DNA of 64,000 nt from Alloascoidea hylecoeti (GCA_001600815.1 BCKZ01000011.1:475622-539621); one strand, 5' to 3'. Shown: positions 1,141-55,584, numbered from the stretch's first letter. Numbers and translations: made by a program. The notes: generated by a model from the letters alone, not told the origin.

Positions 1141-4100
1141 GTGAAGGGGTATCATGATCGAACTTCTACATTCAATTAGTCCATTTTGACCCTTAAATTG
1201 TTCAGTTGTACAATATATAATGCTGTATTTATATGTTAATTATCAATTGTGAAATAACTAAGTTGCAGGTTAAATATGAGGTATAGATCAGGTGGCTTTG
1301 GGCTATTTCAATTAACGTCAGAGGAGACTCAAACCCCGGCAAAAACTTACAAAACTTACGGGGTATACCCTTTATATAATTTTGATTGGAAAGATCTCAT
1401 TTTAAACTAGTAAGTACAATTATGAATAAAAAATTCAATATATCAGGTTTTTGGTTTATACATGTGAAATCTAAGCTATGACAAGTTATTATTGCCACTA
1501 AGAACTAAAGAAGATTCATGATTGTTGACATTTTAGAGAGTCCTCCATTTTTCAATTAAATCATTGATCATTGTGCTTTCGATCTTCCAGATATTCCAGA
1601 TATTGAGTGTATTTTCATTTTTGTTTAATCATTCTATCTCTTTTTACTTATTAAACTCCACAACATTATATTGAAATTTGCACTGCTGTGCTTCTATTTT
1701 CAGTTTCAGCTATGCTGACACTTTGAGTGGATATAATGGTTATGGAATAAGAAGATGGATTATTAGTTACAGCTAGCTATTGTAATTCGAAATTACTCTA
1801 TATTTTTATTTAATAGCTGTCAGTAGTTAATCAAGAATTCAAGCGCTCGGTTTGTAAATTGCAATTGTATGTTAACTAAAGATTAACGATTCTTTATAAA
1901 TAGTCGCAGATCTGAAGTTAATTATAATTATGTTTATTGTTTTACATTTGCAACAATGACAAATTCATAATCATAATTAAGTTTTTAAATTGTATTGTCT
2001 CCCGGAGAGTGTCCATTTCTTTTGGGTACCATTTCACCATTCACATTCGCTTTGCATTCTTATTTCTTACACACTTAATAATAACAACAACAGTTTCATC
2101 GCAACACAAATGTAACAAAATATTTGTCAGTGGCTATGTGTACGATTACCGTTTGTTGTCTTAGACAATTGATTGTATTTAAGACAATCATCGATATTGC
2201 AGTAACTGTCAATATTACTAATTATTTATTAAAGATGTGTCAAATTTTCAAATTACTGGTTGTAATTACCGGTAAGGCTGTCATCGATATCCGAAGCCTT
2301 TAATTTCCAGAAACTTCAACCCTAAGATTATGGTTAATATTCATTGATCAATTTGTAGTTTATAAATTAAGGGATAACGTTAACACCTCTATTTATACCA
2401 GTACCAGTTTTATCATAATAGCGTTACATGCACTCTCAACAGCGCCGTTTCAATACTATAGTCATACCATAATTATGATTTCAAAAATGTTAAACAGCTA
2501 AATGAAACCATGCAATCTATGCAAAAATAAGTGGAGTTCAAACTTCGAAGAACAAAAAGGCGAATAGTATGAGCTAGTTAACGTTTCTGGTAATAAATAT
2601 AATGGCGTTAAGCTAATGTATTACATTACATGTGTAAATTGAATACGTTTAAATTTCTTAATTAACTTGCATTTTGACATGTCATTATATTTCTTTAAAA
2701 AATTTGAATTTATATCAGTTATATAATACTTAAGCTTATAGAAAACATACAGCCTTAACCTAAAGCACAACCCGCTTTGATTATTGCTTTCATTATTAAC
2801 TATTTAAAGGGTAGAAATAATTAATTATCAATTTTAAGGCTTTTCTATATGCATGATTATTACTTTAGTTTTGTTTTGAAGAGCTGGCAATTATGTGAGG
2901 ATCCGAATAGAATATATTGTAATTAGTTAGTAGCGCTAGCTATAGTCACATATCAACAAAATAGTTTAATATGAAATATATATCATATATATTAATGGGG
3001 GTTTTTTTTTTCACCCTAAGAGTTTGATCGCGAAAATAAAGGGAACCAATTATTAGAGTTATATGAATTTAAATGAATTTATAATTATAAATATGGTTAT
3101 GTAACCTTCGTGTAATATATTAATCATAAGTTCATAACTACAACTAGATATTATATACATCATGATCAACGCTAGCATTACATGAATTATTATATTCTAG
3201 ATTCATATCTAATAGTACACGTATATTCGATGTAATATGCATAATATTTAATTTAATTGGTAATTGCAATGAATTATAAGCTAACAGTTATTTAATAGAG
3301 AATAGATAATAGAGAAACCATCCCAATTGCAATGATATCCCAACCTTCTTATTTTTGTTGATAACAATATCGATATATCAAATTTTAACCTTTGTGCATC
3401 AAATCACCAAAGTTAACTGTATTAATTTACTTTGTGCATTACTATCGTTAAAGTTGGCAGTATAGCTAGTGCTAGGCTATTGTTAGAATAATGAGGTGGG
3501 GCAGAATCGATGTTTGTTGACGTCAGTTCAGAGAAAATGTTGTTAATTATAAGCTTCAGTAGTTAAAGGATCATCTTATTTGATAGGAATTAAATATTTA
3601 ATGTCTTCTATACAACAATCACAATGAACTCAGTAAATAGCGTAATTAAGTTGTAGAAAGGACGAATTGAGCTTGTCCTGCACACGTTAGTATGGTTAGC
3701 TAGCAATAAACTAATTAAGATGTGACTAATACACGAATTTTATTTAGTCCCGGAGGGCGATATGATACACTACAGAAAATCAATAATTATTGAGTTTACT
3801 CCCTGAGCTACGGGCTCTAATTTTTTCATGGATTACTATAATAATTATGTATAAAATTTGTAATTGAAGTTATCATTAAATTTAAATTCATATTATTAAA
3901 CCAATAATTATTACAACTTTAATTTTCAAGTTAGTGAACTGGAGACTGGAGTGATTCATACATGTATGCATATCATATCGCATTATTCTTTACATTTAAT
4001 TACCATAATTTGATTGATTGATTGATTATTAGTTATGAAAACGATATTATTTTGCAATTGAGAGCAAAATATTAATATTAGCGCTAGCTAGCAGGACAGC

Positions 4101-4469
4101 TATAAAGGATCAGGACTCAGGAGTTATAAATTATAATATTAGTTGTTATTATAATAAATGAATTGATTGAATAAAACAATTGCCGTTTCAAAGGCAGAAA
4201 CATGAGTAGACATGGTGCGGTCTAGAGGGGAAAAGTTTCAATATTATGTGTTCTGTCGGTTTTAAATGAATGCAATTGGATGATATAATCCATTGATTAT
4301 AAGACTAAAGCGATGTTAATATTAATAATTGATGTTTATAGACATTGTCCATTATATTCATATTAAATGAACATTGATATGAAAAGGGATGGAAGATATG
4401 ATATAATTATGAAGGAATGCAGCTGAAGATAAATTTAAGTGCAAAAGAAGGTTAAAGTTAATTAGCAGA

Positions 4470-4770
4470 AACCAGGGTGGACGGGTCTTTTGGAATAACG
4501 TTAGCGGGTCGGGAGACGTATTGTTGGGATGCCGGATAACTGGCGTCTTCCGGGGTGGAACCGGGGTGGAACCGGGCAGGGTTCGGGCAGGATTCGTTCA
4601 GATGCCACTGGCTGCCAGGCAACGCTCCTTCTGAGGCACGCAAGGCGGGAGTCTGAGTTTACAGGCTATTCTAGATGCTGTGTTGCCTGAACGACTGCTT
4701 GTAGAAAAGGCCCTGGTGGTCTCTCTTGTAGACCTGCCCAGGAGACCTGGTGCCCGGATACGCCCGGTGT
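4470..4770 (+). promoter_or_regulatory. GC-rich upstream region of the PUF gene
   Basis: Abrupt GC-rich island in AT-rich DNA with many GGG runs and a tandem CGGGGTGGAAC repeat (~4551-4575), 250-500 nt upstream of the ATG. Confidence 0.45.
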
Positions 4771-4953
4771 GTTTGATTTTGTATATATTATTCTTTATTC
4801 TTTCTTCTCAACAACTCCAAATTTATTCTTCCAGTTGTTTTTGTCCTTCAGCTGTTCTGTTTTTCCATCTTTCTTCCTTCTTGTTCTCGTCCAAATCGAC
4901 CCTCGTTGAGATATAAAAACAGCCACTTCACCACTCCAAGTATATCCCTTATT

Positions 4954-5013
4954 GTAAGCATTTCCATCCAACTTCACTTTTTCCGTCTTTCACATTTGAT
5001 TAACTCCTTTCAG
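4954..5013 (+). other. Putative 5'-UTR intron ending immediately before the start codon
   Basis: GTAAGC at 4954, branch-like GATTAAC at ~4998-5004, CAG at 5011-5013 directly followed by ATG. Its 60-nt length matches other introns in the window. Confidence 0.55.
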
Positions 5014-6415
5014 ATGGATCGCTATATTGAAGTCTCGGATCAGCGAGCAGATCTAAGCGCTGATGATGATTTGTACTACAATTACCAAAATGCCCATAAT
5101 CTCAATAGTTTGGGTGTTTCTGAGCCTGTAACTCCACCAGAAAATGAAAAGGAGAAGGTGGACCTCGGTACTAAACAATTTTCATTTGGGTTGAACCAAA
5201 CCTCCAACTCTTACAATCACCACCGTCAGGCCTCATCTTTCTCAGGAATGTCTCTTCATACTAATTCAACCTCTTTTTCCTCTTTCAACACGGCTGCTAC
5301 AACCCCAACAAGCTCAGATCTACTGGCTGGTGTTACTGGTCCTTTGTCTAAATCTCCTGCTGTTAATTTGTTAATGAATGAAAACCCTCATTCTTCAATC
5401 CCAACAACTTTACCAACAACTTTAAATCAAGCAAATCTTATCAATAACAATAACAATAATAATTCTTATTTTAGAAATAATATCAGATCAACTTCAATTT
5501 CCGCTCCTGTTTCAACTTTACCGCCTTTCACTTCTAACCCAACTAGATACAGTTGGATTTCTCCGTATGAAAATAATGATGAGTTATCTTTAAAATTACA
5601 ATCTTTAAGAATTGCTTCTCCTTCAATGTTAGATGAAAATTCTCTTCGAACTCCAACAAATAATAAATTCTTCAATCAACAACCATCCTCAAATATTAAT
5701 GAACATGTTCAAATCTCTTCATCTTCCTCAAATTATCCAACTTCTTCAAATGCAAGTGTCAATGGAAATGCAAATGTAAATGTAAATCCAAATTGGAGAT
5801 ATTCTCAAGATTTTGGTATTACTGATAGTAGATCATTAATTGAAAAATCGATCAATACCCCTGTTACTTCAAATATTAATTTTAATGAGCCTTTAAGTAT
5901 TGGAAATGGTAATGTAAATACTAATGATAATGGACTTGGAAATGGAATTAGAAACGGAATTGGAAATGGAGTACCTTTTAGAAATAGTGAAAGTATGACT
6001 AATTTACAACAAACTCCAACAAAACAATTTGGTCATTATCATTCTGTTTCTGCTTCTGTTTCCGATATTCCTTTTTATGCTCAAAGAGATTTTTTGTATA
6101 GAAGTAAGAATCTTCAACAACAAAAAACTACCAACTCTATGAATTTAAATGGTATGCCAAATGTAACATCTGCTAATAACTTTATGAATCAAAATATTAA
6201 TCAAACACCGATGTCAATGTCTATGGGTAATTTTGATAATAAACAACGTACTATGCGAGGATCTGTTTCACTTCCAATTGATCGTTCTTTTAGACAACAA
6301 ATGCAATTACAAATGCAAATTCCTTTAAATAATCCTGCTTCATTACCTTTACAATCTCCTGGTATTAATAATTCAAATGTAATGAATTTACAACAACAAT
6401 TAAATTCTAAAAATC

Positions 6416-33632: not shown

Positions 33633-33715
33633 TGTTGGAAATATATACTCTTGATCAGTCAACAAGAAGTCATATGGCTTTTTGGCGCAACGATACAATT
33701 AGTTTGAACTTAACG
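33633..33715 (+). mobile_element. Diverged solo copy of the ~90-bp mini-LTR at 44772-44862
   Basis: Starts TGTTGGA, shares the exact 17-mer TGGCTTTTTGGCGCAAC (33675-33691) and TTTGAACTT near the end, and ends TAACG instead of TAACA. TSD not preserved. Confidence 0.7.
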
Positions 33716-34460: not shown

Positions 34461-34989
34461 TGGTTATAATAATAAGATTAAGTATATTATTGTCTAATGG
34501 TTTGTATAAATAACCATTATACAATTAACATATATTATGTTATGCTACACATTTTAATATAGGTATAGATGTGTCTTACATCTTTCATTTTGCTTATAAT
34601 AGTCATTATAAGTTATAATCAAGTAATAAATTTAGATGAAGTAGAATTAATTATATTTAGATACACATCAGTTAGATACCATGAAATCAAACAATAAGAG
34701 TGTAATTATTTATATTTTAACCCAGCTGATAATATAATATAGGATATACATTTGTATATTTTGGCCATTTACTAGTTTATGGCTATCTAATATCAATCAA
34801 CTATAACATCTCTAAGACCGTTTTTGTAGAAGTGACAATAATGCTTTTAGATATAATCTCATTTTCCTTCTTGTTTTTCCTGAGAATAATAATAATATTT
34901 CAAGTTATTGTTGTATTAGTTCCGAAAAACAACCGGCTTTTTAAATTCAATCACAAACTTGATTATTGTCTTGATTTAATGATCTTAAG

Positions 34990-35740
34990 GATTTTTCAAT
35001 AACAATGGAAGCACCTTGGCCAATTGGTATCATTCATCACTCTAGTATCATCTTCAATAATTTCCATAATAGATGATTTAACTCTGGTTCCATCCCGGAA
35101 ACTCATTGTGGAAACAATTAACTCTCTCACGGTATAAACCCAATTAGCACTAGCAACAAAAGCGGTTGGGCTATGCAATCTTTGATGCCAGACATTTGCA
35201 ACAAGAATACTAAATCGTGTTTTTTTTCTAATAATATTGTCAGAAACAAGATTTTACAAATTGATGCAATATTCCAGGTGCAATCCAAGCAGCACAGCTT
35301 TAATATCAACAGATGCTTCTGGCCTTGAAACTGTAGTTACTGCTCTATAAGAATGTGATTGAAAAAGTCGACTGAGTGTGTCTATCACACCAGCTGGCAT
35401 TAAAGGTTCAATAATTATGATAAAAAGACTATGCCCAATACCATGTTGGTTAAAGATATTCCACCCTTAAAGTACGAACTTGGGTTTCGAAGTAATCTTC
35501 ACTATAGAAAATTTTTAAAATATCTGAATAAGTCAGATACTTCACCTTGTGAATGGAATACCCTCCACCAACACCTACTATGAACAATAAGTATCATGAT
35601 GTCGAAAAATGCCCTGTCCTTGTTATCCATAAATTCCCTTATTACCGACTCTTTCTTTAGATAACGAAGTTGCTGAGTTTGTATGTGAAAGAAAATGCCT
35701 CAATAGTGAGCTTCGATAACTTTGAGGACACAATTCACTT
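34990..35740 (-). pseudogene. Decayed hAT-like transposase
   Basis: Minus-strand fragments in the expected order: BED-finger-like LCPQSYRSSLLRHFLSH (~35735-35683), then RFSILVANVW...AFVASANWV (compare FSLTTDxW...FLxITAHWI), then RCFHC (CxxH-like). Stops and deletions throughout. Confidence 0.45.
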
Positions 35741-38700
35741 TAATTCGAATGAAAAGCAGGCTGTGGCTGCGTACGGCAGTGCCTACTACATAGTATGTGC
35801 AATCCTCCCTTTTTTGGTGGTGATACCCGAAGTTGAAGGTGTATAATATGTTAATTAAAATACACAATAATCTTTAAACATAATGGATGCCAACGACCGA
35901 TGCCGAGTCCGACATTTGGAATTTAGAATTTAGGCGCTATTTTTCAGAGATTTAAAAGATTATGAAAAGAAAGTATAATAACGATTGTAAGCGGTAGCTA
36001 TTGATATTTTAAACTCTCTTACCTCCTAAAATATCAAGTATATATATATTTTTATGTTGTATCAATACTTGCATTTATTGGAATTTCTAGTAAAAATAGA
36101 AGATCTCACAAATCAATATCAAGTCATTAATATAGCTGTTAGTGATCATATTCCTATACTAATAATAATTCATCCCTTTGTAAATACCTGACCATAAAGC
36201 TACCTAACAACAATTATCGCTACTAATAATCATAAAATGTTAATATATATTGATAGCACTGATGTTGATGCAGATTCTCCCAAGTTCCTTTTTGACGTCT
36301 GGCATATAAATTCTGTGATTCTGTTGAATAACTGTCCCCAACAGAATTTTTGGTAGTTAATTTAGCCAAATTTGATTCACACAGTTACCGGTCGTGATTT
36401 GAAATATAATTATTTCTATAGCTATATCAAAATATATAATACTACGGTATTCAAATAGTGAAATAAGTGATTATAAATTAATTGAATTACAATATGAATA
36501 TTGAGTGGATGGGAAATAACATAATTATAGTGAGGTATCTAAAATTAGTAGGTATTGCTTTTTTATGTACCTGTACATATACCGAATATCATGAAGTTAT
36601 ATATTCCAATTGACTTATCTACAGTATATATGCGGATGTATATTTCTCCTATAAGATGGTATAAATATGCAAGAAAAATACGAATCAATTTAATTTAAAG
36701 CTTAATTTATGCAGACTTAGTATAATATATATTGAAGTTAATAATGATAATAAATATGTTGCATATTTAAAAAATGGTACCCAGGAATGGCTTCGGATTA
36801 CATGTATAGAAATAAGCTGTAATTCGGGGCCTTAAATAAGCTGATCATTAGTTCCAGTAAGATTAGATTTTAAGACTGGTTTTTGGGGGATAATTATAAG
36901 GTAATATTATATCAGAATTATCCGAGCCTTTCTAATTTTTAGTAATTCAACAACGATGGTAAAGCCTTCCATCGTCAATGTCTGATAAAACTATTGTTAT
37001 TCATATATGATTTCGATTCACATTGGAATTTTCTGAAGCCAGTTATCTATCTATAAACAATTATCAGTCATAAATATAATTGGGATTTAAAATAAGTAGA
37101 GAGAGAGCTGGTATAATGATTGTAAGCTAAAGTATCAATTTAACTTTGTTTTATAATTACAGCCGCATAGGCTCGGCACAAGAATTTAAACTTAATTACA
37201 AAAAATGTTGCAATTATATGGCATCCACATGCATGATCAATATAAGCATTGACACTGTTTGACAGTGATAATTTGTACGAACTACAACTATAGTTCCAAT
37301 TCCAAGTGTATTCTTATTAATTGTTGATAATTTCCCTCTTAAATTTAATACAGATTTTTTAATTGCAATTTCAATTGTTCCCCGAGGTTTATTCTCAGTG
37401 AAGCAGATAGTGTTTTCAGGAATATTCACGCTATTAATCAGTTTTGTAGATTTTTAGATCTGGAAAAGATTTCTTAAACCAATAATACAAAAGAAATATA
37501 CGTATAGACTAATTGTATATATACTTCTACAAGGCTTATAATATATCTAGAGTCGTACTAAAGTAGTAGAGAATTAAAATATAGTATTATTTTGGGTTAA
37601 TATAATGAACCTTCCTTTTCTTTATAAACCCTTTCTCTAGGGTCACATCACTTTTATTTATAAACTCATGTTCGAATATTCGACTTCCCTAGTACACGCG
37701 TAATAATATTTGTTTTTGCTGTCTGTCGTATTTTAAGGCCAAAAAGCCTTTTCAATTAATTTCTTCTAATAACTACAGATGTGCTTATTCAAAATATCAG
37801 TTCAAAAAACAAGGGACGGTTATCATTGGTGAATTTCAAATATATAACGGATATAATGCTTTTAGAATTCTGCTATATGGGCCCACATGTCATATATATA
37901 TGATCCTAAATTCACATCCACTTAAATAATTACATGTAATCAGTATTAAAAAAATATATCCAGTCACCCATTAGTGATATCTTGCATTATTGCCTATGCT
38001 TTAATGCTTTAATTACAAGTTGGACCAAATTAAACTACACCAAAAGAACTATGTATAGTTATTTAATATTTATATTATATGCAAAAATGAAGAACTACCA
38101 TAAAATTATATATATAAATTTAACATTATTAGCTAGTGGTAGCTTTCTAGCTTAAAGTACCTGTAACTTCATTTTCATTTATTAGGGAATGGGTTCCTTT
38201 TTAAGCTTCTTGTAGATTAATACCATTATAATTAAGCCTCCTTTTTTGCAAGTTTTTTACAATTCACATTTGAGATCCAATTCGATTATGGAAATAAACA
38301 CAACCTAGTAAGAACTTTAGAGATAATTCGTAAATAGAGGAGACGAAAGTTAACCATTCTTAAAGCTAATTGTAACATGAGAATATTGAATATTTATAAG
38401 CCTTATAGATGTATTAAAATGATTTCTATGATAAGTTTGATAACGTTCCAATTGAATTACATTTGTAAAATGTTTCGTATATAATATGCAGGTATCAGTA
38501 GTTAGGGTGCAACGTTGTTTGACTCAGAACGTGTAAAACTCTTGATGATATACATTATATCTTCGACTGTTTGAGAGTATCTAATCGAAACATTAATCAT
38601 TTTTGAGCTTTCAAAATATAAATGGCCGGGCGCAATACAAGAAGAAGTGATATATTGTCCGTTTAGTCGGATCATAGGTCCGATACTGGGTTTCGCGTCT

Positions 38701-38949
38701 CGCAAAACTAATTTCAAAATCACTGGCACAATAGAGTACACCTAACCAACTAGCAAATAGCCAAAGTTATTTTCTCTTGATCCCAGGGGCCTAATCAGAG
38801 ACTTACAGAAAAGGAAAAGTGCAACGAAACACATGGAATATGAGGTTGTTACGGAGAGGGTTTGGGAAACATTAATTCAGTTACAGTGGTGTAGCAAAGA
38901 AATATTACGACGAGTAGCAATACCTTTTAAATTTGTTCAAGCTTTTAAA

Positions 38950-39075
38950 GGTGGCATTTTCCAAAAGTACAATTTTCCAATCCATAAATCCAAACACTAG
39001 AAGGAAAATTAGATGGAGCTAGTCTGTGTTAGCCTGCGAGCTTTCCAGATCTAACTCCCACTGAAAAACGTGTGG
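38950..39075 (+). pseudogene. Tc1-like transposase remnant (DD34E region)
   Basis: GIFQKYNFPIHKSK (compare IFQQDNAPIHTSK), then *PASFPDLTPTE and, after a frameshift, NVW (compare WPAQSPDLNPIENVW). Confidence 0.65.
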
Positions 39076-39986
39076 ATCGAAAATACAAGCACCCAGAGTG
39101 ATATCGCTATTTGGCTAACTCATCTCATACATGCCAAAGTGCCCAAAACAAGTTATCGCAGTAAAAGTAAGCCAGGTCATATTGACTACTAGAATTGTTT
39201 TACAGTGCTACGTACGTAGATAGGTTAGGGAACTATTTGTTTCGGTAATATATCCTTGAGAATTGATCCTTTAATCAAGACTGTATCTTTATAGATTATA
39301 TGTTATGAGTGAAATAATGTAACACTCAACTACCGATGGCCTACTGTATGTTCTCCGAAACATCATGATCACATATAATATTGTAATTAACGGTAACAGC
39401 ACTAAGCCTAGCTTCATATATCCTCTCAGATAACCGTAGTTTGAGACAATATCTTGCTCCATTGTCCATTGTAGACGCCGGATACATGCTTTTATTTTCT
39501 CTGTCAAAGTTACGTGTAAAATATAGCTGCAGTTTATTTAAGATCGGATCAAACTCCCTTAAGCGATTAATCGTTCGTACCATCATCAATTGAAATTTTT
39601 TTAATGCCATACAATGCCATACATACATGATACATGTATACCCATCAATGTTAGTTAGGTAGTAATATTAATTCTTTAAACCAAGAGCCATATTTTATTC
39701 AAAGATGATGTTATTTTAATATAAATAAATAGATTTAAATACACTCATACGCGTATTAATATATATCATGATTATGATTACCTATAGAGCTATATATCCG
39801 ATTTAACAATCATTGTTGACTATAAATTCAAGCTTGATTTCATAATTTCTTCTATATCTTTCAATTGTTTTTCAGTATTCAGTCTTATAAATCAATTATT
39901 GGAGCTGACTACACCGAACTAAACGTATCAAATACAAAACAAGTCATTGAATTTCTCTCTAATTGAACTTTACCTTTATCGCTAAA

Positions 39987-40067
39987 ATGTCAAAGTGTTC
40001 TTGTGCTAGCCCAAAGGCATGTACCTGTGCTGCTGGTTGCAGTTGTTCATGCTGTTCACACAAATAA
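39987..40067 (+). CDS. Metallothionein, 26 aa (Neurospora Cu-MT type)
   Basis: MSKCSCASPKACTCAAGCSCSCCSHK*: 8 Cys in a CxC-x5-CxC-x3-CxC-x2-C spacing, no aromatic residues, AAAATG start context, upstream TATAAA motifs. Confidence 0.88.
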   Translation: MSKCSCASPKACTCAAGCSCSCCSHK

Positions 40068-41039
40068 ATTATGGTTATGAAAATTGAACAACCTAAAATG
40101 ATCTGAAGGAATTTTTAAATGCCAATAAAAAGTATCATTAATATAGTTGTTCGGTTGAAAATTTTTGTTGTCTTTCTATATATAGCTACGTTCATTGTTT
40201 TAATATAGCTACAGTTACTTTCTTTTCTTGATTTATGGGTATAATATTTGACCGATATAAATTAATCAGTAAATTATATCTGAATGGATAATATACTCTT
40301 TTTATTATCTTTATGCATATAAGCAAAAATTGCTTCTAATTGTAGTTCGTTAAGCTATTATTATAGTCCATAGTCCAATTACATGTAACAATAGCTATAG
40401 CGATCACACTAATATGATCAGTATACGTAATTGTAAAAAATGTAATTATAAAGTTTTCTGAAGCTGTCTTCAGCTTTATAGAATGTGGCATATGGCTTAT
40501 TTATAGGGTATACCCGCTTTTCAGCATATGAATAAGCATTTCAATTAATTGTTATTCCAACCAAATATGTACTGTAAGAAATATATTCCCCAATAGCTAC
40601 AAATTCCAAAAGGTACCTTGAGTTTAAAAATTTTATAATTATAATATGTATCATATATTATCCATTTATTATATAATTTTATGATAACACATAAATAGTA
40701 AATATTGAAAGGTATAATGCATACTTATCATTCAATTTTACTTCATATATAAAACCAATCGCCAGATTTCAGAAAAAATAAACAGGCCCCATACAGAAGC
40801 GTGTATATTCTTCACGCAATTAAAAAGTTTAAACCTCTCTATTATGAAGGCCTAAACAAGGGAAAACCCCTCGATCAATACATCTTGGTCCACAAGGCAC
40901 TTGGGACGTTTGGCGCTTGTTGGCCATGATTTGCCGTTGGAAAATGGCGCGAAACAATATCGGTTCAAAACAGTGTCCAGATAAAATCCCGATGAGCTTC
41001 TTATCTCATATTCACAAAATTGGTGAGATATCTATCATG

Positions 41040-41110
41040 TCATGGTTTCAAGAGAAATGAGTTAAAGTGATGGAATGTTAATCCGGATCTGAACCCAATT
41101 GAAGTGTGAA
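41040..41110 (+). pseudogene. Second Tc1-like transposase remnant
   Basis: SWFQEK*VKVME, then after a frameshift PDLNPIEV* (compare WFxxxGVKVLEWPxxSPDLNPIENVW). Confidence 0.65.
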
Positions 41111-41179
41111 AATAATCATGAATAAAACGAACCAGCCCTTATAATACGGAGAAGCAAAAAAAAAAAGCTGATGAATCAA

Positions 41180-42150
41180 CTTATAAAATATATAATTAAT
41201 ATTTTTTTTCTGTATAAAATATTCGCTACTAGAGACATATATAATATTACACATGCTATACCATCTGATGAGTTACGCGTACCCAGGTTTAACAAATATT
41301 CCTCTTCTTCATGAGTAAAATGTGGTCTCCAAACAGTTTCCATGCAACTGGTGAATACTACCGTATGAGGAAATATATCAGCATACATATGCATGCACTC
41401 ATCTAGGTGTTGAAAAGTTTTAGATTTTCCCCCAAACTTGTTCATTTTGAGCGTCCCACACCATATCTAAAATTTCCTTCGGTTCTGTTAAATTAAAGTA
41501 ATTCCCCTAGCGACTTCCTATCTTAAATTTAAAATGTAAATGAGTATTAGTGCTTAAGGGAATCACAAAGTTTATTGATTTTTTGACTATCATGATCATC
41601 CGGATTAAGTTTTCAATCAAAATGTCCAATGTTTTTTTCCGGCATCTTTCCACTCTTTTTTCTATAAGAGCTTATATGTAGGTAACAATTCATTTGAGTT
41701 CAAATTGAAACCAAACATACGATATATATCTTTAAAAAATCAAATGTTTCTAAAATTTCAGTTCCAATTTGATCACAAATATCATTTTGAAAATTTCTTA
41801 CCGATTTCAAACCAGAGAATTCACTGGAAAACTCATTACGATGTATGAGACACCAAAATCGACAGCTCGTTAAGGTGAATCAGAAAACCTTCTTCCTTCA
41901 ATTTGAAAAGTAAAGAATCATTGCGACAATTCATTGGTTTTAAGAGAAACAAACTTTTCTGTATAATTTCTTAAAATGACCGAAGTCCTCCCAGAGCTTT
42001 GTTCCATTTACCCTACATATTTGGAGTGATGCCTTTATAATATCTTCTTGCTCTATACTCTCATTATAAGAAAATCGACGAGGTCATTATAAATTCTTGT
42101 TTTATGCGACAATCAGAAGGGAAATCCAGGACTAAACTTAAGGAAATAGA
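41180..42150 (-). pseudogene. Decayed coding sequence of unidentified origin (probably a transposon)
   Basis: Coding-like composition with several stop-broken protein-like stretches on the minus strand. No family could be assigned with confidence. Confidence 0.3.
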
Positions 42151-43215
42151 AAAGCTCTTACTCTCTTCCTATTTCTCTATTATCTCCTTCTGATGGATCT
42201 TCCATGGTTGTGAATTTAACGTACGCATTCAACTAATTAATATTGCTTTCACACACACGATTGATTTCGCACCAATTTATGTTATGTACTTATTATTTAA
42301 CAATAGATTAGATTAAAACAGAATCAACAAATTATAATTACGGATTAGCTTTCTTGAACAACAATGGGTCAAACTTGGATATAGATAATTCACAAAATTC
42401 TGACACTGAAATAGAATCTCATACCAACAAATCTGCTGGACTTTCGACATCATCAGAAACAGAAACAGAAACACTGGAAAAATATAAACTTGCAATAAAT
42501 GAAATTCAGCATTGGGAAACGACACCCCAAATCTTCAGTAACTCATTTTCTAGCTCTTGATAAGTGTCTACCGCGACGTAACTACCTTCAATTCATTCAG
42601 GTACCAATAACATCACATTCCCAAACGTGAAGTAAAAAGCAAAGACTATCCTCTTCTGCTTCGTCAAATTCATCATCAAAATCCAATAAATCTTCAGACA
42701 TCCCAAGATTAGCTGAATCTTTAACATATTATCCTGAATGGCTAGAAATTACACGTGCAACACATAAATATTTTAATACCTCCTTGACACCTCTTCTAAC
42801 ACTGAATCAACTCCAAATAGTTCATTACAGAGAATCCCAGATATTTTAGCAAATTCAGATCCTGTAGAGTCAAAACTTGAACGTTCAAATCTGTTAAAAT
42901 TAATAGATGATTTGGGTTAAAGAAAATAGTTGATAAAAGTCTTCTTGGTATCCCAATGACTATTGATAAAAGCGCACCTTCTCATAGCAGTGAATTCCAA
43001 AGAAGTCTAATATAAGAGAACAACCACCAGAATATAGAAATAAAATGACGGATTATATTTGTGATTCATTAAAGATTGATAATAAAGTATGGAAAGGCGA
43101 TCGTTAGCTACAATTTATATATTAATAATATTTGTATAAGTTGGATACTAAGATGCTCATATTTGTTAAAGTATGATACCATGTAACATTGTGGTTAACG
43201 CTTGTAATTTATTAT

Positions 43216-43467
43216 TGTTGAATAGAATTAGATGTTGATTCCTGTTCGCTCATTGTTAATTGATGTCCTCAGATTGTATAAACACGTTGTTCTTAAACTC
43301 TTGGAAATTAAATATGAATATAATTATTATATTATATTTTTACGATATTTTCTAAAATGTGGGAATTCCTCCATATAAATTATGGAATCCCCAAAAACTA
43401 TTCAGTCTAATTAATCTAAATAATGAACTATAAAATTGTTCCACCATGTTCTTCCATATAATCAACA
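43216..43467 (-). repeat. Ty1/copia LTR (252 bp), left arm
   Basis: TGTTGA...TCAACA termini, preceded on the minus strand by the PPT GAGGGAG (43474-43468). Near-identical inverted copy at 44317-44563. Confidence 0.9.
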
Positions 43468-43493
43468 CTCCCTCTTAATTGTATTCAAGTCAC

Positions 43494-43984
43494 TTAAAGT
43501 GAGTTGTTCAATTTATCTCTTAATAATAGGAATTCACCCTTGGGTATGGGTTTAGTAAGATAATCACTTAGATTCAGTTTACCATCAATTTTGATAAGTT
43601 TTTCATTCCATGAATCTACCTCACCTTTTGATTTAGATTCTTTATTGAATCTCCTTCTTAACACTTTCAACTTGTTATCCAAGGTTTTTGTTCTCATCTT
43701 GTAATTCTTTATTCCAGTGATCCAATGAATTACTGGCATATTGTCTTCATAAATGTTGATTTCTACCTTTTTAAATAATCCCAAGATATTTGTCTTCAAT
43801 CGGTCTATTTTATCCATTGATAAATCTAACGAACAAAGTTCACTTTCTGAACTACTCTTGACATCAATTCTCATCAATTTGCTATGTTAGTAGATAATGT
43901 TGTTGTTCAATAACATCAAAGCACCAGAAGTACTATATCTATCATCTCTATCATTGGCGTGATCTGCATCAATATAAAAATCGA
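43494..43984 (-). pseudogene. Ty1/copia RNase H domain (pol C-terminus) with a stop at the conserved Trp
   Basis: IDFYIDADHANDRDDRYSTSG...IY*HSK...SSSESE...IYEDN...NLSDYLTKP, matching the copia RNase H motifs DADxAxD, RxSTSG, SSxExE, EDN and ADxLTK. TAA at 43889-43887. Confidence 0.9.
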
Positions 43985-44290
43985 TTGAAGACAAATATCT
44001 TGGGATTATTTAAAAAGGTAGAAATCAACATTTATGAAGACAATATGCCAGTAATTCATTGGATCACTGGAATAAAGAATTACAAGATGAGAACAAAAAC
44101 CTTGGATAACAAGTTGAAAGTGTTAAGAAGGAGATTCAATAAAGAATCTAAATCAAAAGGTGAGGTAGATTCATGGAATGAAAAACTTATCAAAATTGAT
44201 GGTAAACTGAATCTAAGTGATTATCTTACTAAACCCATACCCAAGGGTGAATTCCTATTATTAAGAGATAAATTGAACAACTCACTTTAA
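43982..44290 (+). pseudogene. Inverted duplicate of the copia RNase H C-terminal part
   Basis: Translation identical to the left arm (KTNILG...NNSL*). Confidence 0.9.
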
Positions 44291-44316
44291 GTGACTTGAA
44301 TACAATTAAGAAGGAG

Positions 44317-44563
44317 TGTTGATTATATGGAAGAACATGGTGGAAAAATAGTTCATTATTTAGATTAATTAGACTGAATAGTTTTTGGGGATTCCATAAT
44401 TTATATGGAGGAATTCCCACATTTTAGAAAATATCGTAAAAATATAATATAATAATTATATTCATATTTAATTTCCAAGAGTTTAAGAACAACGTGTTTA
44501 TACAATCTGAGGACATCAATTAACAATGAGCGAACAAGAATCAACATCTAATTCTATTCAACA
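44317..44563 (+). repeat. Ty1/copia LTR (247 bp), right arm
   Basis: PPT GAAGGAG upstream, TGTTGA...TCAACA termini, followed immediately by TGGTAGCG. Confidence 0.9.
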
Positions 44564-44574
44564 TGGTAGCGGCG
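44564..44574 (+). promoter_or_regulatory. Primer-binding site, tRNA-iMet type
   Basis: TGGTAGCGGCG directly after the LTR's CA. TGGTAGCG is complementary to the 3' end of yeast initiator tRNA-Met (the Ty1 PBS begins TGGTAGCGCC). Confidence 0.8.
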
Positions 44575-44771
44575 CCGCCCACGAGAGGCATCAGGTTCGA
44601 GTCCGCCGTAGGACGGTAGTTTACATCAGTCTAGTTGAGGCTTAGTAGGGTAACGCATAAATGGCCCGAAAGTAAAATGTCCGAGTCAGTCTGCAAGAAG
44701 TCCGCAACCCGAAAGATCACGGGCGTGAGCAGATATGGCGATTAGTAAAGTGACCTGACTAAGGTTGGGTG
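44564..44771 (+). mobile_element. Non-coding internal domain of a miniature LTR element (PBS, B-box, hairpins, G-rich PPT-like end)
   Basis: GC-rich 208 nt with no ORF in the track. GGTTCGAGTCC at 44594-44604, nested complementary segments, and AAGGTTGGGTG directly before a TG. Confidence 0.65.
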
Positions 44772-44862
44772 TGTTGGATATATTACACTCTTAGAACAGT
44801 TCACTAAAGAGTCAATTGGCTTTTTGGCGCAACTGGGAGAACAGGCACTTTGAACTTTAACA
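44772..44862 (+). repeat. 91-bp mini-LTR
   Basis: TGTT...AACA termini, followed by the TSD. Homologous solo copy at 33633-33715. No similarity to the copia LTR beyond the termini. Confidence 0.75.
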
Positions 44863-47327
44863 ATTATTCATAATGTATTTATAAATTTATCCATCTAGTT
44901 ATAATATTCAGTCTCTGTTATTTACATGAAAAGAGTTTGAGGTTTAAACAATTGCAACTTTAAATTATACAATTACGCTGTATATAAAAATCATAATCTA
45001 AGTAAGATATAGTTGGTGGAAATATAAACGCATACGACTTGTATTTATATTTCTCGTTCAAACACATGTAAGCCTTAAGCTTATAATTATATATCAATTA
45101 GGTTTGCTATAATTGCAATTCGTCATATTGCAATTATCATATTCCTTTTTATATAATTCCACCAAATTGTGTATGTAGTGATATTTTTGGAAATTAATTA
45201 ATCTACTCTTTGAAATTTGTTTGGTTTAAGAGGGGAAAAAACCACATATTTGTCTATATTACAACGATGGTAAAATTCAGCTGCAGAGCCTAATTATAAG
45301 AGAATGTAGTTAGTTCATATTTCATTTGTGTATTAAAATTTAAAGTATATTTTACAAAGCTCAAGAATTAATGATAATTATGAGCTAGTTAGCTTTATCT
45401 ATATTGCAATATGATCACTAGTGAGAGAATTCCAATTATTTTGCAATTCTATCATTACAATGCATTAATATTGATATTAAAGATCCCTCGATCACCTTGC
45501 GTGGTCAAAAAACTGGTGTTGTGTCATTGTGTTCGAATATATATAATTAAAATCACTAAATTTAAACAAATCTATATAATCATAATATATTAATATCTCA
45601 CTACTTTAGCAGTTAATTAAATTTAGCTATACTCTGACATTTATTCCAGTTGATGATTTTCAACGTTCTAATATACATAAATGTTGCAATATTGGTATCG
45701 TTGCTATCGTATCGTAATGATATTTAATCACTGCACGAATAAGTTGTCTCCATAGTCACGAAAATGGTTGTAGCAATTACCGATAATAATAAGTTCTATT
45801 TTATTAATGATAATGTGAGAACTGACTCAACTGAGCACTGAGCAATGAGCAATGCATATAAGCAATGAGCATACCTAGGCCTGTACTATATGTATTGTTA
45901 ATATTTATTAGAAAAACTAATACCAGGTAACAACTATTATCAATGTGTTTCGCTTTTGTATATAAATGACCAAAAAGGACATAGCATAGACGGAAAAGTC
46001 ATTGTACATGCAACCTACATAAATATTGCAAATAATCGTGATTGATAAAAGTGTGGTGACTGTGGTGTGGTCTATTCTTTCTTTCTATAAAATAATTAGG
46101 CTATGATTAATGCAAATTATGATATCAAATCAGAAATAAATTAATCTAGTGTCGCCACTTTCAATAATCTCTCAGTACCATGGTTATAACTTACAACAAT
46201 GAAAACAATCGATACTATGAATTTCATGAAACCCTTACATAGTACATACCAGTGTCGGTCCCTGATCGGGGTTTTCCCGATTATTTCAGATATTTGAGCC
46301 GATGGTTAGAAGTCAGAACCAAACATGTTTGTTCAATTTAACAGAAAATAAACAGAATCACGGCATAGGGAATTTATTACCGATCGCGGTGGTGAAGCCG
46401 TTACGTATACAGCTGTGGCTGCAGTTTTGCTAAAGTCATATAATTTTATATATATGCCTAGCTATATATATATGGTTGTAACTTATAACGTCAATTTCAG
46501 CCTTGGGTAGGGTTAGTACGATAAGTCGCCCATAACTGACTATTTATAATATAACAGAAACTTTATATAGCTATATAGAGTGAAATATACAATGTTTAAA
46601 AATGATTTTCTAAGATTATACACTTAAAATTTTGAAATTTTAAGCTTCATTATTATAATTAACAATGCATACCTATTACCTATATAAGTTTTATATATCA
46701 CATATACCGGCGTGTACTGATTTTTCTATCTATATCTTAACTTATAGATAAGGACAGCCACGGGGCGATATGAGTACCATACTTATTACTTAACATACTA
46801 CCAAATTTACCAATGCTGAGATGCTTAAGCTTAATTATAATCGATATACACCTTAATTGTAATATATATATTATTACCAGATGATGGTTAGCGCATATAA
46901 AACTTTATACATTCGAAAATGATGAGTAGATCTAGAACCTGCATGTATTACATGTAGTCATATAAAGATTATGGTGTATGAATAACGGGATGTATGTAAG
47001 GGAAACTTTAAAGTACAGGGCGGGATAATGTTTTGCAATTGGGCTCATGACCATTGCCATTTATCACAAGAGGTGAAGCCACACCTTTCTGGTTGTATCT
47101 TATCCCACGTGTGGATTACAAATTATATGTGCATTTCTGTAAGGAGGTTGAGCAATTTAGTTCTTCCTTGCTCACTTAAATATATATATAATTGCCAAAA
47201 GGAATCAATTTGTTCTGCTATAATACACCTTTTTATTATAAAAGATGCTTTGACTTAGAGATATAAGTATACTCTTACCTAATTCGATCAGTATTAGAAT
47301 GCTATGATCATGAATATATGTAAATAT

Positions 47328-47639
47328 TAGACATGCAATGAAAAAATAATATATTTTTTTAGCCCGATACCAACCCGAAACCTGGTTTCGGCGGGGGCAA
47401 ATTTTTGACCTTCTTGGTATCGGACTGGTATCGGATTGGTATCGACCTGTCTGGATTTCCATTTGCTTATGTAATAAGATAGAGTAACCTGCCTATTCAA
47501 ATATTTTTGAAGTAAATTAAAGTGAAGACAAGACGATTATCACGTTACTAAAGAGGTGTTTGGTGGTATCGGTATCTGGGCATCTGGTATCGGCCCCTGA
47601 CCCCAAAAATGCCCGAGTCCGAGCCGATTGCATGTCCTG
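47328..47639. mobile_element. hAT-like non-autonomous element/MITE
   Basis: Terminal inverted GACATGCAAT / ATTGCATGTC and repeated GGTATCG(G)/CCGATACC subterminal motifs. The left end resembles the 33180 element (CATGCRATGAAA). No clear 8-bp TSD. Confidence 0.5.
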
Positions 47640-48583
47640 AAAGTATATAATGCTATAATTAATAAATATTACATACCGTACAGAATCTACAGATGTATAA
47701 TATAAAAAATATTTAATTGCTTGATGCAATCCTCATTTCTTAAATATAAAATAGCTAGCTCCGTGAAATATATAATATTAGCATGTTATAGATATCTAGC
47801 TAGCTATAGATAAATGAAAAAACATGGTCATATATGTGAAAAGCATTGGCATAAAATTGATTAATTAGCTAGAGCACTTTCTATGATTTAAAATACATGG
47901 CGGTATAAGCTTTAGATAAAGATAAGGTGAATAAATATAAGCTTAAATGATAAGCTTAGGCTTATAATTGACATTATTGAATTTAAGGGTATAAACGTAG
48001 ATATAATATGGTTTACGTAGATCGATTTAATAGATCTATCAATTAACAGATATGCAGAAATCTAATTAAAGAACATGTTTATGCACATGCAATATATATC
48101 TAGTCCAATGCATATGCATACAACAGCGATATTTTGTTGCAATCTTGGCCGGAGAAAAAAAGTACATAAAATCCCCTTTATGCCTAATACCAACCAATCA
48201 TCAACGTGAATTAACTCAATAATAAATTGTTTCTCCACCATGAATCAAAATAGAATCCAATCAAATGGTGGGCACTTAGTGCTTTCCAGATTAGGAATGA
48301 ATTGTTCGGTTTATAGGTAAAATAATATATTAAAATTTAAAAATAATAATTAATATTCCCCGGGAACACCCTGTATTATATCAATATTTAAATATATTAT
48401 TGTGTATGAGTAGAAGTACAAAATTTTATTTAAATTGAATTTCAGTTTCTTTTTTTCCCCTTTCCATAAAATTTAGAGAGATTTAACTTAACATTTAAAC
48501 ATTTAAAACATTTTATTCCCTTAATTTAAATTAATGTATAATAATATCAGCTATATATAGCGATAGCAACAAACCATAATAAT

Positions 48584-50163
48584 ATGTATTTTCAAGATGG
48601 CCAGCAAAGGAGGGTAAGACCTTACTACAAACGATCAAGGAATGGGTGTCTTAGTTGTAAGAAACTAAGAATAAAGGTAGGTTTGGTTTTGTTGTTTCTA
48701 TTACATTGAAATTTTAAGGTTTCATTCTAATCTTATTTTCTTTTTTGACACATCTTTAGTGTGATGAAGCAAAACCAAGTTGTGAATATTGTCTTAGTAC
48801 GAAGCGAAAATGTGTCTATCTACCACCTGTTGTTAAAAAGCCAAGATCCAAAATTTCGAAATGTTCAACAATTTCAAGTACAACGGATTCAAATAATAAA
48901 TCATATCGGTCGAATCAAAATACAGAACAGGGCTTAGAGATGGTTAACTCAACAGTAAAAAGAAAAGTAGAAAAAGATAAGAAAAGAGCAGAAAAACCAT
49001 TATCACCATTTTCAACAGTTGAGTTATTTCCAAGTTCTATATATGATGATTATGGACCCAGATTAATAAACCATTACATAAAATATACTTATAGAATCTT
49101 AGCAAGTGATTCAACACCAACTAAAGTTGAAATTTGGAGATCGAAAGTACCAAAGTTAATGAAGAGTTCAAGCTTAATAACTGAATGTATTTTATCATTT
49201 ACAAGCTTACATTTATGGATTTTAGAGGGTAATTGTGATAATGAACTAGAATCAAAGTCTAGTTTACACTATTCAAATAGTTTAAAGTTATGTGGTAAAG
49301 AATTATCAAAATGGACAAGATTTGACGCTTATGATTGTTGTTATAAACAAAATATTAATGAATTTCAATCTCATGACTCATTAAAATCACAGAATATCAA
49401 CAACTATAATTACAATTGTAAAAATGAATCACCAGTAATTACTTCAAAAAGCTATGAAGAGATATACATTGCAGCAATTTTAATACTGTTTTTTACAATG
49501 TTTCATCCAAATTTAATACCATTAGTTTCAACAATAAATTATGACAATAATGATTATAACAATAGAGAAAATTCAATAGACTTATTAAAAATTACTCAAT
49601 CATCAATGGCAATACATAACCTCACAAAAAACGAAATCTCAAAGACAATATTTGAAGATTCACTATTTGATAATGGTTTGGATCTAGATTTAAATATTCA
49701 TGTTATTGAGCATGATCATATGCATGAGAATGGTGCAGAATTCGGAGATAATTTATATCTTTTGATACCAAAGGAATTAATTAAGAAACTTTATGAATTA
49801 AAAGATCAAAATTTGATTTCCAAATCAGAATTTGAAATCAATTTAAAAGCATTAAATTTATTAATCAATTGTATTAAAGAAAATAAAATTAATCTAATAT
49901 TTAAATTTTTATTCTTTTTACCAAATGAATTTTCAAATTTAGCAAGAAAGAAGAAAATATTTTCATTGATTTTATTAAGTTATTTCGCAAATTTATGCAT
50001 TATTGGACATGTATTTTTCACAAAGGATAACAATATTTGGAATAACTTTTTAATTCAGACAAGGGAGTTTTTAAGAAATTCAAATGATGATGGTTGGGGA
50101 GTAGAAACAATGAATTATATTGATGAGAAAATCGGTGATTTACCTCCCAATTTATGTAGTTGA
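48584..50163 (+). CDS. Zn(II)2Cys6 transcription factor, Upc2/Ecm22-like family; exons 48584-48676 and 48760-50163
   Basis: RPYYKRSRNGCLSCKKLRIK|CDEAKPSCEYCLSTKRKCVY. Intron GTAGGT...TTCTAAT...TAG; exon 2 is in frame with the ORF at 48940. Confidence 0.88.
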
Positions 50164-51030: not shown

Positions 51031-52813
51031 ATGATAGTTGATGGAAGGAAGAGGCCGTATTATAGACGTTCTCGCAACGGCTGTCGAAGCTGTAAGAAGT
51101 TACGAATAAAGGTACTAAATCTTTCAATTTACGTAAATATTGTTCTACATCTAAACATACTAACTTTCTTCATAGTGTAGTGAAACAAAACCAACCTGTG
51201 AATATTGTCAAAGTACAAACAGAGAATGTGTCTATGTTGCTCCTATTAAGAAGATACCAAACAAGAAAAAGCAGAAAGTTAGTACTTGTACGGAAGAAAC
51301 TATGTCTCTATCTGATGATCATCACAAGGTAGCCCAAAATATCCCCACCGACCTTGTTCACACTAGTACTATCCCTATTACCACTGACTCTATTATCGTT
51401 AATTCTCCCGGATCTGACGATTCTTCATTCAGTTCAGAAACCTCATCACGAGCTTCATCAACATCAGTATCTTCCACAAGTACGGAGGCCACCATATATG
51501 ACCCTTCAAATAACAAAGGCTTGAGCAATCAATATCATGATCACGTGAAATCATATAAATTATCCAACACACCAATTGGTTCATTATTAAACGTATCACA
51601 GTTTAACTTACATCTGTTACATCATTTTGTTAATCAAGTTTATCCGATTTTTGTACGTGGTCAAAATGGTTCATATAAATATCAATTTAATGATGTTTGG
51701 TTGAATAAAGTACCAATTTTATTTAATGAATCAAAATTAATTTCAAACGGTATAATGTCAATTTCATCACTGAATTTATGGTATCTAAATAACAATTTCC
51801 AAAATCTTAGTTTAGAATCATCTTCTTCATTGTATTATGATTCAACTTTAAAATTATATCGGAAAGAATTAACATGTTTACAATTAAAATTATTAAGAAA
51901 TAATAATAATATTAGAGATGATGCTGAAAATCAATATCGTTATAGTATACTGTTCTTATCATCAGTTATAATTTATTCATTTTCAATACATCATCCAAGA
52001 TTAATTCCATTGGTATCTTTTAACAAAAATAGTTATTCAAATATTAAGTCATCAACAGATTCAAATAAATCTGATGCTGAAGAAGTTGAAGAAGTTGAAG
52101 AAGATGATGATCATGATGAAATAATTGATTTGTTCACTATTATAAACGGTATAAACTTAATTGGCAAATTAAAACTATCAGATTTATCAAAAACGTTTTT
52201 GAAACCATTTATTTTTAATGATGCAATTCTAATTAGAAAAAAGTTTATCATACCGGAAAGTTTTAACTTTCCATTTTTAAGGCTATTAATTAATAAATTT
52301 AAAGAGTTTAAAGAAAAATCGTTTTATAATTATAATTTATTTATTAAAAATGATAATCATAATGAAATTTCAATAAATAATAATTATGATATTTCAGTAA
52401 ATGAAGAAATTGAAATATATAATCAATCAATCATAAAATTAAAAAGATCATGTTATGATTCTTATAAAGTAAATTGTTCAGTATATATTTTTCGTTGGAT
52501 ATTTATAATCGATCCAAAATTTCAAATTTTATTAAAACAAAAAAACCCATTTTCATTATTACTTTTATCTTATTATTGCGTTTTATTACAGTTAACTAAA
52601 CATTATTTATCAAAAGATGAGAATATATGGCTGAATTTTATAAATACTACTAGAAAGATATTTAAAGATTTTGGAAATGATGATAATAGCAATGAAATGA
52701 TATTGCAAATGGATTGGGAAAAGGAATTAGAAATTCCTTTAAGATTTTTGAGAAATTATGAAGATTTTGTTGATGGAGATTTTCAAAAAATACTTAATTT
52801 ACCAATAGACTAA
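51031..52813 (+). CDS. Zn(II)2Cys6 transcription factor, tandem paralog; exons 51031-51111 and 51176-52813
   Basis: RPYYRRSRNGCRSCKKLRIK|CSETKPTCEYCQSTNRECVY. Intron GTACTA...TACTAAC...TAG at the same position as in the paralog. Shared motifs HPxLIPLVS, FSLxLLSY and NIW. Confidence 0.88.
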
Positions 52814-53833: not shown

Positions 53834-53907
53834 TGGACGACACCGGAATCGAACCGGGGACCTCTCGCATGCTAAGCGAATGTGATAACCAACTACACCA
53901 GACGCCC
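53834..53907 (-). tRNA. tRNA-Ala(AGC)
   Basis: Cloverleaf with A-box TGGTGTAGTTGG, anticodon loop TTAGCAT, GGTTCGATTCC, G3:U70 pair and a downstream T-run. Confidence 0.95.
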
Positions 53908-55510: not shown

Positions 55511-55584
55511 GGGCGTCTGGTGTAGTTGGTTATCACATTCGCTTAGCATGCGAGAGGTCCCCGGTTCGATTCCGGTGTCGTCCA
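55511..55584 (+). tRNA. tRNA-Ala(AGC), identical to the copy at 53834-53907
   Basis: Same 74-nt sequence with a T-run terminator downstream. Confidence 0.95.

Follow-up and report, generated by a model that had tools for sequence, protein, structure and literature searches.

What is the 299-nt segment at positions 44564-44862, and how did it come to lie directly behind a copia-type LTR? The initial annotation of this locus in Alloascoidea hylecoeti had proposed a miniature LTR retroelement, transcribed by RNA polymerase III (Pol III) from a tRNA-type promoter that is split between the LTR and the body. Here, the segment was analysed within a 64-kb stretch of DNA, which as a whole is called the window, and together with contigs from four public runs. 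The window is A+T-rich DNA of the yeast type (G+C about 31%) and carries ordinary genes (PUF, NOG1, RING, C2H2, HMG, PBDC1, and a RasGAP of 2438 aa).

The site at which the mini-element is inserted is a gene-poor region of about 14 kb (34500-48700). The longest frame in this region has at most 130 aa, and among 121 frames of at least 40 aa the sole credible Pfam matches were pieces of DBR1. The other Pfam matches had E-values of 0.004-0.08, under the curated cut-offs and at chance level. Perhaps this gene desert is a centromere-like or a decayed region. The C-terminal domain of DBR1 was matched by two adjoining frames on the plus strand at 42499-42846 (E = 1.2e-9 and 4.6e-4), and the N-terminal phosphatase domain of DBR1 was not found among the frames of at least 40 aa in 34500-48700. 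Apparently, a fragment of a broken lariat-debranching-enzyme gene lies here, just to the left of where the retroelement is inserted; for Ty1, DBR1 acts as a host factor. To the right of the desert, the genes at 48760-50163 and 51176-52813 look like tandem paralogues, as the 88-nt sequences at their starts (48757-48844 and 51173-51260) are 75% identical; neither gene had a Pfam match.

Anatomy and abundance of the mini-element

All the features that the initial annotation had listed were found in the segment. It starts with the primer binding site (PBS) TGGTAGCGGCGCC (44564-44576, plus strand), which lies directly after an LTR end, is common to the copia element and the mini-element, and forms the junction of the chimera described below. 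We take TGGTAGCGGCGCC to be complementary to tRNA-iMet; the window itself contains no tRNA-iMet gene. The PBS is followed by a non-coding, G+C-rich internal region (44577-44760, plus strand). This body contains the B-box-like sequence GGTTCGAGTCC (44594-44604, plus strand), a perfect match to the pattern. Next come a polypurine tract (PPT)-like sequence AAGGTTGGGTG (44761-44771, plus strand), read directly from the sequence, and the mini-LTR of 91 bp, TGTTGG...TTTAACA (44772-44862, plus strand), the ends of which were set by the loose ends of contigs. The PPT and the LTR start resemble their copia counterparts. On the plus strand of the mini-LTR, we located a TATA-like sequence ATATATTA (44778-44785, LTR positions 7-14), a T5 run (44821-44825, LTR positions 50-54), and the A-box-like sequence TGGCGCAACTGG (44825-44836, LTR positions 54-65). 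The T5 run is, as claimed, the sole run of at least four T's in the 299 nt (44564-44862).

The window holds a second copy of the mini-LTR, solo and diverged, on the plus strand at 33633-33713 (BLAST, 80.6% identity over 62 nt). The 17-mer spanning the T5 and the A-box-like motif had been described as exact in this copy, and we confirmed this block, which comprises the 16-nt GGCTTTTTGGCGCAAC and the preceding T. GGCTTTTTGGCGCAAC has two exact matches in the window, one in each mini-LTR copy, compared with 0.14 expected. Directly after the 16-mer, the copy at 33633 has GAT where the copy at 44772-44862 has TGG, and its motif reads ...CAACGAT. Of the two mini-LTR copies of the window, one thus has an A-box-like motif without the terminal GG. 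A clean target-site duplication was not found around the copy at 33633, which is flanked by CTTAT and TATAT.

We found no ORF of at least 50 aa inside the body or the mini-LTR, and no Pfam match among the frames of at least 40 aa that overlap the mini-element. The body as a captured piece of a cellular non-coding RNA or rRNA was considered and dropped, given 0 Rfam matches in 44500-44900 at E-values up to 10 and folding z-scores no better than shuffles (+1.46 for the plus strand and +0.54 for the minus strand). Its similarity to the T-arm region of the tRNA-Ala genes of the window extends over 24 nt (79% identity) and nothing more, with the T stem unpaired. The body might also be a read-through copy of the primer tRNA, or extend the complementarity to it, but the reverse complement of 44577-44610 presumably has only a patchy likeness to parts of the initiator tRNA. 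We also rejected an origin of the mini-LTR as a deletion derivative of the copia LTR, since their likeness is limited to the PPT/LTR start and the U5 end. The body 26-mer and the LTR pattern had no match in metagenome contigs, and the LTR pattern and P0001, the copia protein introduced below, had none in viral contigs.

The abundance of the mini-element was evaluated in four runs (X1-X4), which cover three samples from three studies and include one wood-decay metagenome; all abundance figures are summed contig depths, not copy numbers. In each of the four runs, 5-9 contigs carry AT-rich, mutually unrelated loose ends that stop exactly at 44772 and 44862. These varied flanks indicate that the two positions are true repeat boundaries. 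The mini-LTR reached a summed contig depth of about 500-1000 times single copy, which is a measure of contig depth and not of copy number. In X1, for example, the contig depth of the mini-LTR bins is 50-60 thousand, compared with about 62 for single copy, and the ratios in X2-X4 are similar. For the body, bin depths were 1733-5039, and contig depth was about 20-80 times single copy. Over the copia parts, contig depth was about 20-100 times single copy on the LTR and about 3-10 times on the pol piece.

Contigs that join the mini-LTR end, the PBS, and the body were found at about 11-32 times single-copy depth across the four runs. One contig of X1 (depth 1538) contains this arrangement and matches 44560-44704 with 0 mismatches and one 1-nt gap; corresponding contigs cover 44560-44754 in X2 (depth 720) and 44560-44711 in X4 (depth 185). 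Such body-covering contigs, starting from 44560, were obtained in three of the four runs (X1, X2, and X4). In all four runs, the loose end before 44560 is the 3' end of the mini-LTR, represented by 11-23 letters per run, which shows that the mini-LTR directly precedes the PBS and the body. Both junctions, that of the 5' LTR with the PBS and body and that of the body with the PPT and LTR, are present at multi-copy depth, and the window itself holds the 3' LTR only. Compared with the abundant form, the copy in the window has one extra C at 44578.

Since these junctions are repeated many times with almost no variation, the family is apparently young. Taken together, the contigs indicate that the non-coding LTR-PBS-body-PPT-LTR family is real, multi-copy, and young in Alloascoidea hylecoeti. 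The initial annotation had postulated an intact LTR-body-LTR element of about 390 bp, and our joined model has a length of 390 nt (91 + 208 + 91). The multi-copy family and both of its junctions were recovered in contigs, but among the four runs there was no single contig that spans the whole LTR-body-LTR unit across both LTRs.

Variants of the family were also observed in the contigs. They include deletions of 2 nt and 6 nt at 44699 and 44702, an insertion of GGG in the PPT after 44766, and an insertion of AT after 44777; the letter in the window is not the majority one at 44705, 44712, 44724, and 44814. In one single-copy subfamily, the sequence that directly follows the PBS is a different one. 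Furthermore, single-copy contigs from elsewhere in the genome join the U3 start of the copia LTR to the middle of the mini-LTR, inside the A-box-like motif, and other contigs join the copia LTR end directly to the mini-LTR start (joints at 43460-43467, 44563/44772, and 44829-44836). These contigs suggest that the two families adjoin or nest at other loci too.

The 1647-bp insertion and its origin

We found that the segment at 44564-44862 belongs to a larger unit, which the initial annotation had missed. Positions 43216-44862 form one insertion of 1647 bp with outer ends TG...CA, flanked by a 5-bp target-site duplication with identical copies of ATTAT on the left (43211-43215) and on the right (44863-44867). 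From the base composition of the window, the chance of matching 5-bp flanks is about 0.002. A contig joint from 43210 to 44863, which skips 1652 nt, was present at single-copy depth in all four runs, with 6 letters that fit either side. We read this joint as the other haplotype's empty site; this allele has a single ATTAT and no extra letters. The left junction is crossed by record 10 of X2 with 0 differences. In all four runs, contigs that start at 44839, only 24 nt inside the LTR, cross the right junction with 0 differences.

Compared with the window, the empty-site haplotype shows 7 letter differences and 5 gaps in 311 nt on the left (42900-43210), and 10 letter differences and 18 gaps in 188 nt on the right (44863-45050). 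Its depth is about that of the window haplotype in the same runs. The source organism is apparently a diploid, either strongly heterozygous or hybrid.

The part of the insertion left of the mini-element is a copia-derived fold-back. Its left arm starts with an inverted copia-type LTR of 252 bp (43216-43467, minus strand), which is part of the inverted-repeat arms; the duplication directly adjoins its U5 end, with no PBS after it. Next to it lies an inverted C-terminal part of copia pol (43497-43985, minus strand), detected by tblastn with residues 704-869 of P0001 at 43994-43497 (95% identity). The right arm contains the C-terminus of pol in the forward orientation (43982-44290, plus strand; tblastn, P0001 residues 767-869, the final 103 codons, and the stop codon), the copia PPT AAGAAGGAG (44308-44316, plus strand), read from the sequence, and a forward copia-type LTR of 247 bp, TGTTG...CAACA (44317-44563, plus strand), identified by its sequence, the arms, and BLAST. 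P0001 is a database protein of 869 aa with gag and RVT_2 as its only precomputed Pfam domains; it is 96% identical to the pol piece of the window, and a search for longer relatives of this piece returned P0001 only. An intact autonomous copia copy was not seen in the window, which holds only two short C-terminal pieces of pol, and no retroelement Pfam family matched any of the 121 frames of at least 40 aa in 34500-48700.

Complementarity between the arms (43216-43802 and 43982-44563) is 99-100%, and they enclose an unpaired loop of 179 nt (43803-43981) within the inverted pol copy. The arm break falls at 43981/43982, where a CGAT microhomology (43982-43985) pairs with ATCG at 43799-43802. According to the junction sequence, the true homology of the inverted pol piece begins at the Ile-Asp codons ending at 43985, and ...AAAAATCGAT ends there. 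Between the two arms there are 2 substitutions and a 5-nt indel; by BLAST, the left and right copia LTRs are 97.2% identical over 250 aligned columns with the 5-nt indel. These differences suggest that the insertion is not very recent, or that the second template was a sister copy. No contig across the fold-back junction was found among those explicitly listed. In the four runs, the bin at 43978-44054 is covered near single-copy depth, as a junction-specific contig would give, although this is no proof of one.

A PBS follows the right copia LTR only. An ATG at 44526, inside the forward copia LTR, opens a Gag-like frame in which residues 1-19 of P0001, a protein that starts with MSEKESSSNSIQHGSGA, align at 44526-44582 with 15 of 19 residues identical. 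This frame runs across the PBS, and the match to P0001 stops at residue 17, which corresponds to 44576, the last base of the PBS. Beyond residue 19, tblastn with P0001 gave nothing here at E-values up to 10. In Ty1, the gag frame likewise begins in the LTR and crosses the PBS. These matches indicate that the copia element includes the forward LTR and the PBS but not the sequence beyond the PBS.

That the body is simply the 5' leader or the gag start of the neighbouring copia element, a possibility that the initial annotation had itself raised against a separate mini-element, is thus very improbable. The body does lie directly after the copia LTR, and the Gag-like frame runs from this LTR through the PBS, as this explanation would predict. 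However, P0001 diverges right after the PBS and continues with a different sequence. The contig depths also disagree with it, since the body is at about 20-80 times single copy and the pol piece of copia at about 3-10 times, and abundant contigs place the PBS and body directly after the mini-LTR end. On the sequence and contig evidence, 44564-44862 is the right-hand part of a chimeric insertion and not a free-standing element.

U5-type LTR ends are present on both sides of the insertion. Such a configuration is impossible for a normal cDNA, which suggests that the molecule was already aberrant before integration. Probably, a TRIM-like (terminal-repeat retrotransposon in miniature) element was fused in one aberrant copia/mini-element cDNA, having been co-reverse-transcribed and mobilised in trans by the copia element. 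We infer the order of the reverse-transcription events from the anatomy. A minus-strand cDNA of the Ty1/copia-like element would have stalled inside pol, and its 3' end would have folded back on the 4-nt CGAT/ATCG microhomology. The folded-back strand would then have copied itself or a co-packaged sister cDNA, through pol, the PPT, and the LTR, and finally 13-14 nt of the tRNA primer, generating the PBS. The left arm would carry no PBS because the primer there was RNA, and snap-back copying into the tRNA primer would place a PBS on the right arm only.

The PBS end may subsequently have made a "second strand transfer" onto a minus-strand cDNA of the mini-element bearing the same PBS, and the transferred strand would have run through the body, the PPT, and the mini-LTR to the end of the template. 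Extension of the mini-element strand back would yield a duplex. The integrase would finally have inserted this product, which has a ...CA-3' U5-type terminus at each end, to give the 5-bp ATTAT duplication. Guidance of the second strand transfer by PBS homology is described in the available part of PMC6894440. Mobilisation in trans by the copia family is the best reading of the chimeric cDNA, together with the identical PBS and the similar PPT/LTR start and U5 end.

An assembly artefact, or a composite that formed after integration by nested insertions and a deletion or by a replication fold-back, would offer another explanation for this structure. DNA repair also yields fold-back inversions at short microhomologies (excerpts of PMC11724301), inverted repeats are a known artefact of assemblies and libraries, and the arms are not identical. 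However, both outer ends are exact LTR termini that are flush with a single 5-bp duplication, and the empty allele contains the single ATTAT without extra letters. The U5-type ends on both sides argue that the molecule was aberrant already at integration. As for an artefact, the right-flank contigs have 0 differences in all four runs, from 3 samples and 3 studies, and the left junction is crossed in X2. We therefore regard an origin after integration or during assembly as improbable, and retain the aberrant cDNA as the source of the insertion.

Pol II or Pol III transcription of the mini-element

Which polymerase transcribes the mini-element? As the default reading, LTR-driven transcription by Pol II is rather likely. 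The initial annotation had favoured Pol III, acting from a tRNA-type promoter that would be assembled in full at the 5' LTR alone, with the TATA-like and A-box motifs in the LTR and the B box in the body, and ending at the T5 of the 3' LTR. As a statement about transcription alone, this model does not conflict with the structure of the chimeric insertion. We consider it unlikely, although several features of the element agree with it.

There are three perfect matches to GGTTCGANNCC in the window, the B box of the body and those of two tRNA-Ala(AGC) genes, which are identical and in opposite orientation (53834-53907, minus strand; 55511-55584, plus strand). Shuffling gave an expectation of 0.07 matches per window, none of 100 shuffles reached three, and the expectation within the body, estimated from its composition, is about 0.001. 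A 31-nt block is repeated near one of the tRNA-Ala genes (53474 and 53771). In the joined LTR and body model, the A-box-like motif lies 68 nt upstream of the B box, start to start. An A-B spacing of 68 nt is within the workable range. By general spacing rules, a start directed by the A box would be expected about 25-30 nt downstream of the TATA-like motif.

Other properties of the element point in the same direction. The 299 nt contain a single run of at least four T's. The body is G+C-rich in an A+T-rich genome: the G+C content of 44564-44771 is 52.9%, a value reached by just 3 of 1276 windows of equal size. A further point is the very small size of the element, whose 91-bp LTR leaves scant space for a Pol II promoter and 3'-end signals. 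The T5 and the start of the A-box-like motif make up the sole block that is exact between the two diverged LTR copies, and none of the 40 contig variants listed, out of 70, falls in the boxes. A precedent is provided by the class TRIMp3, with Cassandra, Helenus, and Ajax (available text of PMC10886601).

However, ARAGORN detected no tRNA in the mini-element region or in the joined model, the relaxed threshold included, and Rfam gave 0 matches at E-values up to 10. Matches to the loose A-box pattern in the window are about as frequent as expected by chance (6 compared with 4.96), and the tRNA-Ala genes of the window do not fit this pattern; the copy at 33633 is without the GG of the A-box-like motif. 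In addition, the copies are young, so the conserved boxes say little. That the body is without T runs is expected from its base composition, since 77% of its mononucleotide shuffles are also without runs of at least four T's.

The position of the putative terminator raises further objections. Pol III starts 10-20 nt upstream of an A box. The T5 abuts the A-box-like motif on the upstream side, and would also terminate transcription in the 5' LTR, at about +13 to +19. A start downstream of the T5, on the other hand, would leave no R region for strand transfer. Moreover, both native tRNA-Ala genes use a T6, which begins after 5 nt downstream, and the mini-LTR has a T5. The LTR can also be read as a set of yeast Pol II signals, with TATA-like/UAUAU as efficiency element, an A-rich stretch as positioning element, a U5 tract, and CAA as the cleavage site. 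With Pol II, the efficiency element would be in U3, and would thus be active only at the 3' end.

A more elaborate scenario can be drawn from the Pol III model, and we hold it to be doubtful as well. The element would be a yeast TRIM with a Pol III promoter split across the boundary of LTR and internal region, and a leaky T5 would give an R region of 15-20 nt. Packaging and reverse transcription of the RNA would fall to a copia helper that is itself driven by Pol II, and the chimera would be a fossil of this co-packaging.

Relation to known retroelements

The mini-element was likened to named TRIMs by structure and description, not by sequence similarity. Like TRIMs, it is well below 1 kb in size, lacks coding capacity, and has a PBS, a PPT, and a 5-bp duplication; an intact copy would have short direct LTRs at its two ends. 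It also shares their many solo LTRs and, probably, their dependence on an autonomous element. Specifically, the contigs and the sequence place the PBS right after the 5' LTR and the PPT right before the 3' LTR, there is no gag/pol coding in a length of less than about 1 kb, and the copies are dispersed, with a target-site duplication that was seen at the composite insertion only. TRIMs are well described in plants and animals, whereas the mini-element belongs to a budding-yeast-like genome. Our literature search found no TRIM from budding yeasts, which is no proof that none is published. In terms of size, the mini-LTR of 91 bp is shorter than the LTRs of each of the 34 LTR families of C. albicans, which measure 127-780 bp and comprise 355 LTRs in total (accessible portion of PMC4139406).

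The closest fungal description is that of Helenus, reported by Kojima (2024) as TRIMs with tRNA-like LTRs from rusts, some mushrooms, animals, and one plant (PMC10886601, as far as its available text goes). The same text proposed the class TRIMp3, of which Cassandra is the only validated member; functional Pol III promoters of Helenus and Ajax remain unvalidated (PMC10886601). Helenus and the mini-element are alike as fungal TRIMs that are probably mobilised by copia elements and produce a 5-bp duplication (PMC10886601). Both have A-box-like and B-box-like motifs, and a length of 390 bp fits the range of 311-1263 bp given for Helenus in that text. However, Helenus has a recognisable tRNA-derived sequence with both boxes in the LTR, whereas the mini-element has its B box in the internal region and no detected tRNA-like sequence: its LTR contains only the A-box-like 12-mer, with 0 matches by ARAGORN and 0 by Rfam. 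Furthermore, the fungal hosts of Helenus listed in the available text are Pucciniales and a few Agaricomycetes, and yeasts are not among them (PMC10886601). The initial annotation, which knew of no tRNA-type split-promoter version in yeasts, is out of date in so far as tRNA-type TRIMs were described in 2024 as Helenus and TRIMp3, although these are not reported from yeasts there and carry both boxes in the LTR (PMC10886601).

Cassandra resembles the Pol III version of our element as an LTR-type element that is transcribed by Pol III (parts of PMC10886601 and PMC7215508). It is a plant element, however, with a 5S-type promoter wholly inside the LTR, as given in those parts, whereas Rfam found no 5S match in 44500-44900 and no 5S rRNA-derived sequence was recognised in the mini-LTR. 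The element also differs from SINEs, which have a head derived from a small RNA, no LTRs, and a LINE-type tail. Here, LTR, PBS, and PPT are present, and no such head was detected.

The flanking LTR, the pol piece, and the PBS belong to an element of the yeast Ty1/copia type (available sections of PMC6894440 and PMC4139406). For such elements, strand transfers between co-packaged templates are described to yield mosaics (PMC6894440, in part). The chimera differs from these recombinants in that its partners are unrelated families, which share only the PBS and terminal motifs. A snap-back inverted duplication and the pair of U5-type ends set it further apart.

Should the family be what it seems, it would be an unusually small LTR retroelement, with an LTR of 91 bp and a total length of about 390 bp. 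It would also be abundant, in fungi whose LTR families are usually low-copy and far larger. The chimeric insertion would be a rare natural record of a non-autonomous element that was reverse-transcribed together with its helper, a process that is usually only inferred. Another step that is as a rule only inferred would be recorded as well, namely that PBS homology can carry a growing strand between elements. As a culturable yeast, the organism may offer a convenient system for asking if a Pol III transcript can template LTR-type retrotransposition.
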